This document shows positions 1-7,461 of a DNA stretch of 7,461 nucleotides, piece after piece (positions within the stretch are counted from its first letter, which is position 1; every line of letters starts with the position of its first letter). A program made the translations under genes and the position numbers. The notes under the pieces were generated by a model. The model was not told where the DNA came from. It made no database searches and saw only the letters and a program-made list of their open reading frames with translations. This DNA comes from a virus (Duplodnaviria; Heunggongvirae; Uroviricota; Caudoviricetes), in the IMG/VR virus record IMGVR_UViG_2778261152_000006, one strand, 5' to 3'.

Positions 1-201
1 TTCTTGATCTGTATCTTTATCTGTATCTTTATCTGTCGTGACTCGTCGTGACATGTGCGTGACATTTCGTGACGCGCTCACCAGGAGGTGGATATACACT
101 GCCATCACTGTTGCAATTGGCTGCCCTGACACCCTGGCAATTGTTCGCCACTTAGGGTCATTTGGCATGTCATGCCATAATCTGAGCCAGGCGTTAGCCA
201 T
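1..201 (-). CDS. Replication-initiation-like protein (YdaU/DUF1376-like), N-terminal 67 codons only; continues beyond window start
   Basis: Not in the ORF track because it runs off the edge. My own minus-strand translation from ATG (plus 199-201) gives MANAWLRLWHDMPNDPKWRTIARVSGQPIATVMAVYIHLLVSASRNVTHMSRRVTTDKDTDKDTDQE with no stop to position 1. SD-like GAGGTGA lies 5 nt upstream. Position directly downstream of the CII-like gene matches the lambda cro-cII-O layout. Family assignment is from memory of the motif pattern, not a search. Confidence 0.5.
   Translation of the reverse strand, partial: MANAWLRLWHDMPNDPKWRTIARVSGQPIATVMAVYIHLLVSASRNVTHMSRRVTTDKDTDKDTDQE
7..36. repeat. 12 bp tandem direct repeat ATCTGTATCTTT x2.5
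   Basis: atctgtatcttt atctgtatcttt atctgt read directly. Lies inside the YdaU-like coding frame (minus strand), where it encodes DKDTDKDTD. Confidence 0.8.
37..73. repeat. Four CGTGAC (GTCACG on minus) hexamer repeats phased at 10-11 bp; iteron-like
   Basis: CGTGAC at 37, 47, 58 and 68. The helical-turn spacing and the adjacent AT-rich tandem repeat resemble an iteron plus AT-rich origin arrangement. Confidence 0.6.
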
Positions 202-272
202 ACTCACCTCTTTTGATACCGAATCTTTTTACTCACAAATTGCCGGAAGTGATCCGGTATGAATATTGCGAG

Positions 273-698
273 TCAATGCACAGCCACAATATTTCCTGCA
301 GGGCCACCACGATTCATCTGGTTGAAACCAGCGATCGCCACTGCGACAAAATCATCAGCGTCTCTCACCAGTCGTTCCCGCGTCTCCACTAGTTCCCGAA
401 AATAGGCTGAGCTATGGCTGCGCATTCGGGCCACCAGCAGAGGTGGCATTGCTTTTTCGATAGCTGGTAACAACGCCTGAATTTTTTCAACTGCATCAGG
501 GGTGTCTTTCTCTACCCAGCGGAAAATTTTCTGGGTATTGCGAGCCAGGGCTTCCGGATGGCTGTCGTCATACAGTTCTGGGAACGTCATACCCAGTTCA
601 AAATAAGCCCTGGTTATTTCAGCTGCCGGAACTTTTTCACCGTCCGGATGCGCCCAGGCATTCATCGCCATGCGGATGTGTTCATGCTTGATTTTCAT
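273..698 (-). CDS. ydaT: CII-like prophage regulator (YdaT family), 141 aa
   Basis: ORF-track 141 aa protein starting MKIKHEHI, which I recall as the YdaT N-terminus. GGAG lies about 8 nt upstream of the ATG on the minus strand. Start overlaps the end of the upstream Cro-like gene by 17 nt. Symbol is tentative. Confidence 0.7.
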   Translation of the reverse strand: MKIKHEHIRMAMNAWAHPDGEKVPAAEITRAYFELGMTFPELYDDSHPEALARNTQKIFRWVEKDTPDAVEKIQALLPAIEKAMPPLLVARMRSHSSAYFRELVETRERLVRDADDFVAVAIAGFNQMNRGGPAGNIVAVH

Positions 699-963
699 GA
701 ATCAAGCTCCTAGAAAGTGGTTGTGTTAACATTTTGGTATCTTCCAGCTCGGGCCAAATATTCATCCAATCAAAAGGCCTTAGTTGCTGACGTGTAACTT
801 CACCATTACTGGCTCGCTCAATAAGGACACATAACGATGCCCCTAACACTTGACCTTTACTCAATGCCTTTCTTAGATAACCGATGCTGGTACCACACTC
901 GCATGCAAACATACGCTGTTCATCTGACGAAAGAGAATTGAGAAATATTCTTAATTCTTCCAT
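682..963 (-). CDS. Cro-like HTH regulator (YdaS-family analogue), 93 aa
   Basis: 93 aa ORF with an HTH-like segment (ECGTSIGYLRKALSKGQ) and a ...GEVTRQQLRPFDW tail typical of Cro/YdaS-family proteins. Strong SD AAGGAG 6 nt upstream of the ATG on the minus strand. Divergent from the repressor gene across a 100 bp operator-bearing intergenic region. Confidence 0.7.
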   Translation of the reverse strand: MEELRIFLNSLSSDEQRMFACECGTSIGYLRKALSKGQVLGASLCVLIERASNGEVTRQQLRPFDWMNIWPELEDTKMLTQPLSRSLIHENQA

Positions 964-992: not shown

Positions 993-1069
993 CACCCATA
1001 GGTAAACAAAAGTCAATACCCACAGGTTGTTTACCTTGCAGTAATCGCATCTATTATTTACCTATGGAC
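993..1069. promoter_or_regulatory. OR-like operator cluster between the divergent Cro-like and repressor genes; repeated TACC-N4-GGTA / GGTAAA half-sites
   Basis: CCATAGGTAAA at 996-1006 and its reverse complement TTTACCTATGG at 1057-1067 (11/11). GGTAAACAA at 1001-1009 and its reverse complement TTGTTTACC at 1027-1035. The last site overlaps the repressor ATG at 1064. Confidence 0.5.
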
Positions 1070-1483
1070 AAATATGAATTTAGACGACAGCAACTCATCA
1101 AAATTCGTGATGAGAAATGCGATGGTAAAGCGGTTAACGTGGCCAGAAAGATCGGGCGCGAGCCTTCTTATGTATCAAGAATGTTGTACCCAGAGGGGAA
1201 AAAGGGAAAAAAACGGATCGCTGATGATATGGTGGAGATTATCGAAGAGTCCTTTGGGTTACCCCGGGGATGGATGGATGGTATCGTTTCATCATCAACG
1301 AACACAGCCTCCAGTTATGAAACAAGGGTTCTAACGCCACGACAACGTATTTTTTTAGATCTCTTAGACGAACTGCCAGAAAGTGAAGCGGATAACTTAT
1401 TAAAAACTCTTGAAGAGAAAAAACAGTATTACAATATGATCTACGAAGAAATCCGTAAAAAGAAAGCACAAAACGCATCATAG
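1064..1483 (+). CDS. Prophage repressor (CI/RacR analogue, HTH), 139 aa
   Basis: 139 aa ORF divergent from the Cro-like gene, in the position of racR/cI. No in-frame alternative start upstream (stop at 977-979) and no SD, suggesting a leaderless mRNA. Shorter than the 158 aa I recall for K-12 RacR, so probably a variant immunity allele. Confidence 0.7.
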   Translation: MDKYEFRRQQLIKIRDEKCDGKAVNVARKIGREPSYVSRMLYPEGKKGKKRIADDMVEIIEESFGLPRGWMDGIVSSSTNTASSYETRVLTPRQRIFLDLLDELPESEADNLLKTLEEKKQYYNMIYEEIRKKKAQNAS

Positions 1484-3806: not shown

Positions 3807-6407
3807 ATGAGCACAAAACCACTCTTCCTGTTACGGAAAGCGAAAAAATCATCCGGTGAACCTGACGTCGTCCTGTGGGCAAGCAACGATTTTGAATCGA
3901 CCTGTGCCACTCTGGACTACCTGATCGTTAAGTCAGGTAAAAAACTGAGCAGCTATTTTAAAGCTGTTGCCACGAATTTTCCTGTCGTTAATGACCTGCC
4001 CGCTGAAGGTGAGATCGATTTTACCTGGAGTGAACGCTATCAACTCAGCAAAGACTCCATGACATGGGAACTAAAACCGGGAGCAGCACCAGACAACGCT
4101 CACTATCAAGGCAATACCAACGTCAACGGCGAAGACATGACTGAGATTGAGGAGAATATGCTACTCCCAATTTCTGGCCAGGAACTGCCCATTCGTTGGC
4201 TTGCTCAACACGGCAGCGAAAAACCGGTAACGCACGTTTCACGCGACGGACTCCAGGCATTACACATTGCTCGGGCTGAAGAACTACCGGCTGTTACTGC
4301 CCTGGCTGTTTCCCACAAAACCAGCCTGCTCGACCCGCTGGAAATTCGCGAACTCCACAAACTGGTTCGTGACACTGACAAAGTTTTCCCTAATCCTGGT
4401 AATTCAAACCTGGGACTGATAACTGCTTTTTTCGAAGCATACCTGAACGCTGACTACACCGATCGAGGACTGCTGACAAAAGAGTGGATGAAGGGTAATC
4501 GTGTTTCACACATCACTCGCACGGCTTCCGGTGCTAATGCTGGCGGCGGAAACCTCACCGATCGCGGCGAAGGTTTCGTACACGATCTGACGTCACTGGC
4601 GCGCGACGTAGCCACTGGCGTACTGGCCCGTTCAATGGATCTGGACATCTATAACCTTCATCCGGCACACGCTAAACGCATTGAGGAAATTATCGCTGAA
4701 AATAAACCGCCCTTTTCTGTTTTCCGCGACAAATTCATCACCATGCCTGGCGGGCTGGATTATTCCCGCGCCATCGTGGTTGCGTCCGTAAAAGAAGCAC
4801 CAATTGGGATCGAGGTCATCCCCGCGCACGTCACTGAATATCTGAACAAAGTACTGACTGAAACCGATCATGCCAACCCTGATCCGGAAATCGTGGATAT
4901 TGCCTGCGGTCGCTCCTCTGCCCCGATGCCGCAGCGAGTAACAGAAGAAGGAAAACAGGATGATGAAGAAAAACCGCAACCATCTGGAACAACGGCAGTT
5001 GAACAGGGAGAGGCTGAAACAATGGAACCGGACGCAACTGAACATCATCAGGACACGCAGCCGCTGGATGCTCAGTCACAGGTAAATTCTGTTGATGCGA
5101 AATATCAGGAACTGCGGGCAGAACTCCATGAAGCCCGGAAAAACATTCCATCAAAAAATCCTGTCGATGCCGATAAATTGCTTGCTGCATCACGTGGTGA
5201 ATTTGTTGACGGAATTAGCGACCCGAACGATCCGAAATGGGTAAAGGGGATCCAGACTCGCGATTGTGTGTACCAGAACCAGCCAGAAACGGAAAAAACC
5301 AGCCCAGATATGAATCAACCTGAGCCAGTAGTGCAACAGGAACCGGAAATAGCCTGCAATGCCTGCGGCCAGACTGGCGGGGATAACTGCCCTGACTGTG
5401 GTGCGGTGATGGGCGACGCAACATACCAGGAAACATTCGCTGAAGAGAGTCAGGTTGAAGCTAAGGAAAATGATCCGGAGGAAATGGAAGGCGCTGAACA
5501 TCCGCACAATGAGAATGCTGGCAGCGATCCGCATCGCGATTGCAGTGATGAAACTGGCGAAGTCGCAGATCCCGTAATCGTAGAAGACATAGAGCCAGGT
5601 ATTTATTACGGAATTTCGAATGAGAATTACCACGCGGGTCCCGGTATCAGTAAGTCTCAGCTCGATGACATTGCTGATACTCCGGCACTATATTTGTGGC
5701 GTAAAAATGCCCCCGTGGACACCACAAAGACAAAAACGCTCGATTTAGGAACTGCTTTCCACTGCCGGGTACTTGAACCGGAAGAATTCAGTAACCGCTT
5801 TATCGTAGCACCTGAATTTAACCGCCGTACAAACGCCGGAAAAGAAGAAGAGAAAGCGTTTCTGATGGAATGCGCAAGCACAGGAAAAACGGTTATCACT
5901 GCGGAAGAAGGCCGGAAAATTGAACTCATGTATCAAAGCGTTATGGCTTTGCCGCTGGGGCAATGGCTTGTTGAAAGCGCCGGACACGCTGAATCATCAA
6001 TTTACTGGGAAGATCCTGAAACAGGAATTTTGTGTCGGTGCCGTCCGGACAAAATTATCCCTGAATTTCACTGGATCATGGACGTGAAAACTACGGCGGA
6101 TATTCAACGATTCAAAACCGCTTATTACGACTACCGCTATCACGTTCAGGATGCATTCTACAGTGACGGTTATGAAGCACAGTTTGGAGTGCAGCCAACT
6201 TTCGTTTTTCTGGTTGCCAGCACAACTATTGAATGCGGACGTTATCCGGTTGAAATTTTCATGATGGGCGAAGAAGCAAAACTGGCAGGTCAACAGGAAT
6301 ATCACCGCAATCTGCGAACCCTGTCTGACTGCCTGAATACCGATGAATGGCCAGCTATTAAGACATTATCACTGCCCCGCTGGGCTAAGGAATATGCAAA
6401 TGACTAA
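3807..6407 (+). CDS. recE: Exodeoxyribonuclease VIII (RecE), 866 aa
   Basis: 866 aa [32 protein letters not shown]... ending ...[11 protein letters not shown], matching the length and sequence I recall for K-12 RecE. The C-terminal third carries the nuclease domain; the middle is acidic and low-complexity. GAGG 9 nt upstream of the ATG. Confidence 0.95.
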
Positions 6408-7086
6408 GCAACCACCAATCGCAAAAGCCGATCTGCAAAAAACCCAGGGAAACCGTGCACCAGCAGCAGTTAAAAATAGCGACGTGATTAGTTTTATTAA
6501 CCAGCCATCAATGAAAGAGCAACTGGCAGCAGCTCTTCCACGCCATATGACGGCTGAACGTATGATCCGTATCGCCACCACAGAAATTCGTAAAGTTCCG
6601 GCGTTAGGAAACTGTGACACTATGAGTTTTGTCAGTGCGATCGTACAGTGTTCACAGCTCGGACTTGAGCCAGGTAGCGCCCTCGGTCATGCATATTTAC
6701 TGCCTTTTGGTAATAAAAACGAAAAGAGCGGTAAAAAGAACGTTCAGCTAATCATTGGCTATCGCGGCATGATTGATCTGGCTCGCCGTTCTGGTCAAAT
6801 CGCCAGCCTGTCAGCCCGTGTTGTCCGTGAAGGTGACGAGTTTAGCTTCGAATTTGGCCTTGATGAAAAGTTAATACACCGCCCGGGAGAAAACGAAGAT
6901 GCCCCGGTTACCCACGTCTATGCTGTCGCAAGACTGAAAGACGGAGGTACTCAGTTTGAAGTTATGACGCGCAAACAGATTGAGCTGGTGCGCAGCCTGA
7001 GTAAAGCTGGTAATAACGGGCCGTGGGTAACTCACTGGGAAGAAATGGCAAAGAAAACGGGTGATGATGCCAACTTACTGATTTAG
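6400..7086 (+). CDS. recT: RecT recombinase, truncated by IS1: 220 native codons plus 8 IS1-encoded codons (GDDANLLI), then stop
   Basis: [32 protein letters not shown]... matches RecT up to ...WEEMAKKT. The IS1 terminal repeat then begins at 7060. Full-length RecT is 269 aa as I recall it. The ATG at 6400 overlaps the recE stop (ATGACTAA). Track ORF 6343-7086 starts at an upstream ATG that I regard as not used. Confidence 0.9.
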
Positions 7087-7114
7087 TGTATGATGGTGTT
7101 TTTGAGGTGCTCCA

Positions 7115-7390
7115 GTGGCTTCTGTTTCTATCAGCTGTCCCTCCTGTTCAGCTACTGACGGGGTGGTGCGTAACGGCAAAAGCACCGCCGGACATCAGCG
7201 CTATCTCTGCTCTCACTGCCGTAAAACATGGCAACTGCAGTTCACTTACACCGCTTCTCAACCCGGTACGCACCAGAAAATCATTGATATGGCCATGAAT
7301 GGCGTTGGATGCCGGGCAACCGCCCGCATTATGGGCGTTGGCCTCAACACGATTTTCCGCCATTTAAAAAACTCAGGCCGCAGTCGGTAA
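7115..7390 (+). CDS. insA: IS1 InsA (transposition regulator), 91 aa
   Basis: [91 protein letters not shown] is the IS1 InsA sequence. Confidence 0.95.
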
Positions 7391-7461
7391 CCTCGCGCAT
7401 ACAGCCGGGCAGTGACGTCATCGTCTGCGCGGAAATGGACGAACAGTGGGGCTATGTCGGG
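7309..7461 (+). CDS. insB: IS1 InsB (transposase frame), N-terminal 51 codons; partial at window end. Active product is the InsAB' frameshift fusion
   Basis: -1 frame relative to insA translates [51 protein letters not shown], matching the InsB N-terminus. Open to the end of the window. Confidence 0.8.
7366..7372 (+). other. IS1 A6C programmed -1 ribosomal frameshift motif (AAAAAAC) at the end of insA
   Basis: TTAAAAAAC at 7364-7372 sits in the insA/insB overlap, where the IS1 frameshift window is known to lie. Confidence 0.7.

Follow-up and report, generated by a model that had tools for sequence, protein, structure and literature searches.

The placing of a replication origin inside the gene for its own initiator is a textbook arrangement. 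In phage lambda, ori lies within gene O and consists of iterons and a 39-bp region of high AT content, and small in-frame deletions in the gene O origin of lambda and Stx phages inactivate it (PMC6022878, PMC7466680). In the Bacillus phage SPP1, oriL lies inside gene 38, where direct repeats bound by the replisome organizer gp38 accompany an AT-rich DNA-unwinding element (DUE); this origin is sufficient for in vitro replication (PMC6316719, PMC5737612). For the Rac prophage, an active origin, oriJ, has been reported (PMC3945230).

Here, we describe a related arrangement at one end of a 7,461-nucleotide stretch of tailed-phage DNA (IMG/VR record IMGVR_UViG_2778261152_000006), the whole of which is referred to below as the window. 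By analogy with lambda and SPP1, positions 1–73 of the window probably represent the core of an origin of that style, situated inside the phage's own initiator gene and crippled in this particular copy. What is new here is that a probable origin of this kind belongs to a family of DnaD-like initiators carried by temperate phages of Gram-negative hosts. A literature search, which covered sources other than reviews in subscription journals, returned no publication on this iteron or on the origin of this family.

The locus resembles SPP1 oriL in that the candidate origin is embedded in a replisome-organizer gene and that its direct repeats, like the AB boxes of SPP1, stand by an AT-rich putative unwinding element. 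As for the SPP1 initiator G38P, the N-terminal domain of the protein (N-domain) spans the Phage_rep_org_N models, here at scores below threshold, and its predicted fold is like that of the DnaD N-terminus. It differs from SPP1 in its Gram-negative hosts and in having two repeat arrays ~260 bp apart, one of them within the coding sequence of the DNA-binding domain. SPP1 also has a second origin, oriR, elsewhere in its genome, whereas complete phage Tritos, which carries the module described here, has no second cluster of repeats; and SPP1 encodes its own loader and helicase, whereas the downstream genes here vary.

With ori-lambda, the locus shares a mid-gene position in DNA coding for an interdomain linker, and an order, read along the gene, of iterons first and a tract rich in AT and purines next (PMC6022878, PMC7466680). 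The genomic position, after cro/cII-like genes, is the same, the N-terminal origin-binding module and its iterons recombine with different C-terminal modules, and in-frame deletions occur inside the origin, as in the r-mutants of lambda (PMC6022878). The iterons of lambda, however, are 18-bp inverted repeats, each taken by an O dimer and present as four or six in a single array, whereas those described here are direct cores of 6–7 bp at 10–11 bp spacing in two arrays. Such short direct cores at helical-turn spacing, the paired arrays, and the clean co-variation of iteron class set the locus apart. We rejected an assignment to ori-lambda proper, as neither 18–19-bp iterons with inverted symmetry nor an initiator of the lambda O family was found.

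A third comparison is with ydaU in the Rac prophage of E. coli K-12, which lies at the corresponding place in a Rac-type prophage (ydaS-ydaT-initiator), has internal direct repeats in mid-gene, and encodes the same C-terminal tail, ...IPPGFRG. The two genes nevertheless belong to unrelated initiator families, the repeat sequence of ydaU (AAACAGATGTTCAA) is a different one, and in K-12 a DnaC-like gene, ydaV, lies downstream.

Phased repeats in the window lie inside an initiator gene

The hexamer CGTGAC (GTCACG on the strand of the gene) occurs on the plus strand of the window at 37–42, 47–52, 58–63, and 68–73, exactly where the earlier note had placed four copies, with spacings of 10, 11, and 10 bp; one further copy, the fifth and last in the 7461 bases, lies at 4368. 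First-order Markov resampling of the window (500 replicates) gave no phased run of four (copies of one hexamer spaced by 9–12 bp), the best runs having three copies (4/500). The AT-rich 12-bp tandem repeat that adjoins the hexamers had been described as 2.5 copies at 7–36; it is present, and Tandem Repeats Finder extended it to 2–36, with 2.9 copies of the unit TCTTTATCTGTA and 95% matches. Both the CGTGAC array and the tandem repeat are genuine, chance being ruled out. Together they occupy codons 43–67 of a gene on the minus strand with its start at 201. Its translation from 201 to 1 (MANAW...SRNVTHMSRRVTTDKDTDKDTDQE; complete fragment, MANAWLRLWHDMPNDPKWRTIARVSGQPIATVMAVYIHLLVSASRNVTHMSRRVTTDKDTDKDTDQE) agrees with the DKDT repeat said to be encoded by the tandem array. 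The features at this end of the window are as follows.

1–36, minus strand: AT- and purine-rich tandem tract, GATAAAGATACA × 2.9 on the gene strand, encoding DKDTDKDTD; candidate DNA-unwinding element
37–42, minus strand: iteron core GTCACG, equivalent to B5 of intact genes, closest to the AT tract
47–52, minus strand: iteron core GTCACG, equivalent to B4 of intact genes
58–63, minus strand: iteron core GTCACG, A2/B3 hybrid within the deletion junction
68–73, minus strand: iteron core GTCACG, A1/B2 hybrid within the deletion junction
57–77, no strand assigned: deletion scar, formed by the one surviving copy of GCGCGTCACGAAATGTCACGC (gene strand), a 21-bp repeat; placed by alignment to the intact homologue L001 from both ends
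1–201, minus strand: initiator gene with internal deletion, first 67 codons, ATG at 199–201, exiting the window
205–210, minus strand: Shine-Dalgarno sequence GAGGTG, 3 nt 5' of the ATG, by direct reading of the sequence

The feature is cut by the window edge, as the earlier note held, in that an AT-rich tail (GATCAAAACAC) is lost and homologues run on with GATCAAGAAGATCAAAACAC; the tandem array itself, however, ends there and has no leftward continuation, judging from the intact and short homologues L001, L146, and L148. Within the whole window, the AT tract does not stand out, ranking only 322nd of 7422 stretches of 40 nt in AT content. We found no DnaA boxes and no Rfam families in the window, and a scan for promoters and terminators near the repeats gave nothing above chance.

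The intact homologue in E. coli H7 (L001) is a protein of 356 aa annotated 'phage replisome organizer', which is also the NCBI name of its relatives. It matches phrog_3729, 'replication initiation protein', over residues 1–356 of 356 (E = 5e-257), and the 67-residue fragment encoded in the window matches the same family in two stretches (E = 1e-36), in keeping with the initial description of the gene as replication-initiator-like. The accompanying label, YdaU-like, had to be dropped: Pfam gave no match to DUF1376 even at E ≤ 10, and BLASTP against K-12 YdaU aligned the last 19 residues only. No Pfam family, that of lambda O included, matched the protein above cutoff. PF09681 (score 12.8 bits, cutoff 23.3; E = 0.12) and TIGR01714 (score 15.4 bits, cutoff 49.8; E = 0.015) both remained below threshold, with alignments at residues 5–125 that cover nearly the whole of either model.

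An AlphaFold model computed from 34 homologues predicts a confident N-domain (residues 4–95), with a helix-turn-helix (56–63 and 67–77) and a beta wing, which resembles the N-terminal domain of DnaD; a basic helix (110–126), a disordered linker (131–244), and a helical C-terminal domain follow. The gene is thus a replication initiator, a 'phage replisome organizer' with a DnaD-like winged-helix N-domain. As a separate observation, the last ~19 codons of the intact gene (L001:2401–2460, outside the window) encode a tail, ...PD.EIPPGFRG, common to the intact initiator, the unrelated K-12 YdaU, and the C-terminus of the primosomal protein DnaT (NF002770, residues 333–356); it looks like a portable docking peptide.

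Intact homologues carry two arrays and an AT-rich tract

In intact genes, repeats of the same core form two arrays ~260 bp apart. Array A of L001 has cores at gene nucleotides 129, 139, 149, and 160 and an inverted copy at 192, and encodes residues 43–55, a loop with a dip in model confidence; array B has cores at nucleotides 389, 399, 409, 420, and 430, and encodes the first part of the disordered linker. Directly downstream of array B comes GATAAAGATACAGATAAAGATACAGATCAAGAAGATCAAAAC, and the AT-richest 40-nt stretch of the gene begins at nucleotide 440, directly after the last iteron. The cores encode SR, VT, and GH. A 21-bp stretch is common to both arrays, its two copies lying 270 bp apart. 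The initiator coding sequence contains repeated sites in either form, four in the window and 4 + 1 and 5 in intact genes. The four-hexamer array, although real, is a recombinant remnant, and its N-terminal position within the gene is a property of this allele, due to the loss of 270 bp, since array B of intact genes is found in mid-gene.

A scan of one genome per species yielded 57 more loci, and the counts given below refer to 58 homologous genes of at least 600 nt, which came from Gamma-, Beta-, and Alphaproteobacteria, Acidobacteria, Planctomycetes, and several phages; when viral contigs were scanned with an alignment of the N-domain, the matches were all identical E. coli prophage copies. 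In 49/58 genes, one 5-mer formed two phased runs, at positions that were constant between genes; these genes thereby retain the lambda-like layout proposed in the earlier note, iterons and an adjoining AT-rich tract inside an initiator gene, while clear phased runs were absent in 9/58. Neighbouring cores were spaced by 10 bp in 206 instances and by 11 bp in another 50, with a fixed core of 6–7 bp and variable 4-nt spacers.

By locus, the core was GTCACG in 26, GAACGC in 14, GTAACGC in six, GCAACGC in one, and GTGACG in one, all of which conform to NNN-ACG(C). Lineages differ in their class (GTCACG, CGAACGC, GTAACGC, GCAACGC), whereas in any one gene array A and array B have the same core. More distant N-domains showed the same layout with cores GAACGC (L005) and G[AT]AACGC (L006) in two uncultured phages, and with GCAACGC and an inverted CGTTGC in the Ralstonia phage Firinga (L007). 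An inverted copy lay 32 bp downstream of array A in 16 of 25 loci of the GTCACG class. The 45 nt past the last iteron of array B had an AT content of 0.68, compared with 0.45 for the gene, and were higher than the gene in 51/51 loci; they were 74% purine on the coding strand.

Proposed function of the arrays

On the model of lambda and SPP1, the N-terminal winged-helix domain of the initiator would bind the short direct repeats in intact genes, and a 6–7-bp core at every 10–11 bp would place the bound copies on one face of the helix. The sites contacted would be array A, four direct copies and one inverted copy within the coding sequence of a loop in the binding domain itself, and array B, five copies that lie ~260 bp further downstream, where the linker-coding sequence begins. 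The (GATAAA/GATACA)n tract that comes next, an AT-rich region flanking the iterons and, by composition, the candidate unwinding region, would then melt through the joint action of negative supercoiling and the initiator complex bound at the iterons. A DnaB-type helicase, or its loader, would be recruited onto the melted tract through the C-terminal domain of the initiator. No helicase-loader gene lies beside the initiator gene in L001 or Tritos (L156), where a DUF977 gene is next instead; elsewhere, the downstream genes include a DnaC-like one (L151) and a DnaB-like one (Firinga).

Initiators of iteron plasmids commonly autoregulate, which counts for a different reading of the arrays, namely as operators through which the initiator or another phage regulator autoregulates or blocks transcription of the early operon, replication starting elsewhere. 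The position of array A early in the gene, and the inverted copy downstream of it in many loci of the GTCACG class, would suit a possible roadblock or loop. We nevertheless regard this as unlikely. The AT-rich tract that follows array B at every locus measured is a signature of an origin, not of an operator, and the helical phasing of four to five direct copies is that of lambda and SPP1 origin complexes (PMC7466680, PMC5737612). Moreover, phage Tritos offers no other phased cluster to serve as an origin: of its 25 GTCACG copies, nine lie within 310 bp of the initiator gene, and the others are single and near chance expectation. The two functions are also mutually compatible, and, with the arrays taken as an origin, array A may play an auxiliary part, take part in looping, or serve in autoregulation.

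The window carries a 270-bp deletion allele

Each full-coverage match in complete E. coli genomes fell into two pieces spanning 270 bp beyond the query, since the window allele is without 270 bp that are present in intact L001. The window matches L001 to the end of the first 21-bp copy and resumes at the start of the second, so that exactly 270 bp are missing. These break points indicate that the deletion arose by recombination between the 21-bp repeats common to both arrays. It is in frame and removes residues 48–137, which in the AlphaFold model comprise the recognition helix, the wing, and the basic helix. What the window retains is a hybrid array of four iterons (A1/B2, A2/B3, B4, B5) abutting the AT tract; three more direct iterons have been lost, together with the inverted copy and the DNA-binding domain of the initiator.

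An assembly artefact was rejected as the source of the gap. The junction 30-mer was found in four independent metagenome contigs, in which it is read through on both sides and the open reading frame (ORF) continues to the normal stop, and the short allele is also present in Shigella sonnei and E. coli drafts, its product being listed in the NCBI protein database as a 264-aa 'phage replisome organizer [Shigella sonnei]' (P0002; 37 contigs). A search of IMG/VR did not return the junction 30-mer.

Recombination between the arrays has thus cost the phage 270 bp and left it with a hybrid four-iteron array and an initiator gene without codons 48–137, whose product, to judge from the predicted fold, should be unable to bind that array. 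As the hybrid array and the AT tract are both retained, the cis element itself may still function with an intact initiator provided in trans. Most simply, the window copy is a replication-dead remnant in a decaying Rac-type prophage, dead because the DNA-binding domain of its initiator was excised by recombination between the initiator's own candidate binding sites; the loss of this domain would account for the failure of prophage replication.

A less likely reading, improbable in our view, is that the short allele is no debris and has been exapted (domesticated) as an anti-phage interference module, made up of an origin core and an initiator devoid of its DNA-binding domain. Equally improbable is the mode of action that it would entail, in which the retained C-terminal domain, which docks the helicase or loader, titrates or poisons the replication proteins of superinfecting phages with the same origin. 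In its favour, the deleted ORF runs uninterrupted to its usual stop in all copies found, which represent three distinct prophage contexts, all short alleles have a marker SNP in common, which suggests a single origin and subsequent spread, and ectopic copies of lambda ori are known to block lambda (PMC4488673, PMC3349717). The C-terminal part also has a pN/pS of ~0.2 between short alleles, but this divergence is not datable relative to the deletion and may reflect recombination with intact alleles. Furthermore, the allele is rare, with seven members in its protein cluster against 5786 in the full-length cluster, and deletion between the 21-bp repeats is automatically in frame, because 270 = 90 × 3. 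Were the short allele such a module, inter-array recombination would be a built-in, recurrent off-switch for prophage replication.

Apart from the allele in the window, several others illustrate that the initiator gene is prone to repeat-mediated deletions. Among in-frame deletion alleles, P0018 (302 aa) is without array B and the AT tract, P0008 (324 aa) is missing 32 residues between two PEADSA repeats, and P0005 is 344 aa long. Near-identical short alleles (window 2–36, L148, L151) also vary in how many GATAAA/GATACA units they contain and in what order, giving the tract peptides DKDTDKDTDQE, DKDTDTDQE, and DTDKDTDKE; the tract is slippage-polymorphic. In the Shigella and E. coli drafts L151–L154, the short allele sits in a prophage backbone different from that of the window, with a paaR2-like repressor, a PaaA2-ParE toxin-antitoxin pair (paaA2-parE2), and, downstream of the allele, a DnaC-like loader and a type II restriction-modification pair.

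The N-domain is the constant partner of the iterons

The N-domain is joined to unrelated C-terminal domains in L001, L003, and L004. In the O157:H7 prophage L004, which has a lambda-P-like gene downstream, and in the Pseudomonas phage phita81A (L003), which is 69% identical over residues 1–138, the two GTCACG arrays and the AT tract are kept. Any given family of flanking genes is present in at most 15 of 55 loci (27%). As the C-terminal domains and the neighbours both vary, the N-domain is left as the sole constant partner of the iterons, and the two move as one cassette. The core class is likewise independent of the host, the same class being found across Escherichia, Pseudomonas, Bordetella, and Chromobacterium, and different classes within one genus, and therefore the presumed reader of the iterons is carried by the element, the N-domain being the sole constant candidate.

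It is accordingly very unlikely that the arrays are read by a host factor or by another phage protein, as sites of packaging, partition, or recombination: one core class would have to serve very different hosts, no neighbouring gene family is frequent enough, and the arrays always lie inside the gene for this N-domain. What speaks for such a reader is that binding by the N-domain is deduced and that no class-specific recognition residues were found; the positions that track iteron class are 46 and 48, in the loop whose codons form part of the iterons, some indel columns, and position 115, where R and K interchange conservatively, with none identified outside the iteron-encoded loop that would account for the class.

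Core starts were distributed over the three reading frames as 140, 123, and 123, and a peptide repeat is therefore not what the cores represent; together with a spacing of 10–11 bp, this rules out a peptide-repeat origin of the hexamers. Observed genes had 8–9 phased copies, compared with a mean of ~1.5 and a maximum of 4–5 after codon shuffling. The AT tract behaves differently, as 140/142 copies of GATA[AC]AGA are read as Asp-Lys or Asp-Thr, that is, almost always in one frame, so that constraint on the peptide may contribute to its conservation or even explain it. The outcome that the earlier note had named as refuting its own reading, that homologous replication genes would have no repeats or mere expansions of coding repeats, was not borne out. 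That the repeats are slippage-prone coding repeats in a low-complexity linker, with no role at the DNA level, is scarcely credible, since, for all that the AT tract is a 6/12-bp tandem repeat of allele-variable copy number read as (DK)/(DT)n and that the gene has several in-frame inter-repeat deletions, the iteron cores are equal across three frames at a spacing that is no multiple of 3, occur in two arrays 260 bp apart that change in step between lineages, and score far above the codon-shuffle null.

Prophage context

Upstream of the initiator gene, two further genes of the module lie on the same strand.

273–698, minus strand: YdaT-family gene, directly upstream of the initiator gene (Pfam PF06254, E = 7e-10)
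682–963, minus strand: YdaS/Cro-like regulator, first gene of the rightward early operon (Pfam PF15943, a weak match below cutoff)

The counterpart of the YdaS-like gene in L001 is annotated 'transcriptional regulator'. A divergent gene of 139 aa (window 1064–1483), for which Pfam gave no match, faces the initiator, YdaT, and YdaS genes from the position of a repressor. The remainder of the window is Rac-like, with sieB, recE, and a recT cut by IS1.

The replication module is present in ~2000 of the 5426 complete E. coli genomes searched, and the arrays provide a concrete candidate origin for a module that is also carried by the viable phages Tritos, Evi, and 606R7. The lineage series GTCACG, GTAACGC, GCAACGC, CGAACGC offers a route to how a DnaD-like winged helix reads DNA. 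Standard pipelines miss origins inside coding sequence, and the two-array signature could be used to locate them.

Three minor observations concern the surroundings of the module. A palindrome with a 16-bp stem and a T-run, terminator-like in appearance, follows the divergent 139-aa gene at 1526–1562. The left end of IS1 occupies window positions 7061–7461, with the inverted repeat ggtgatgatgccaacttactgat and an InsA ORF at 7115–7390; the window ends within this element, which is inserted in recT, so that the recT ORF (6343–7086) stops at 247 aa. Lastly, K-12 ydaU (L155:2972–3063; NC_000913.3 1421471–1421562) contains four direct repeats of ~14 nt, similar to AAACAGATGTTCAA, which may be the iterons of oriJ.
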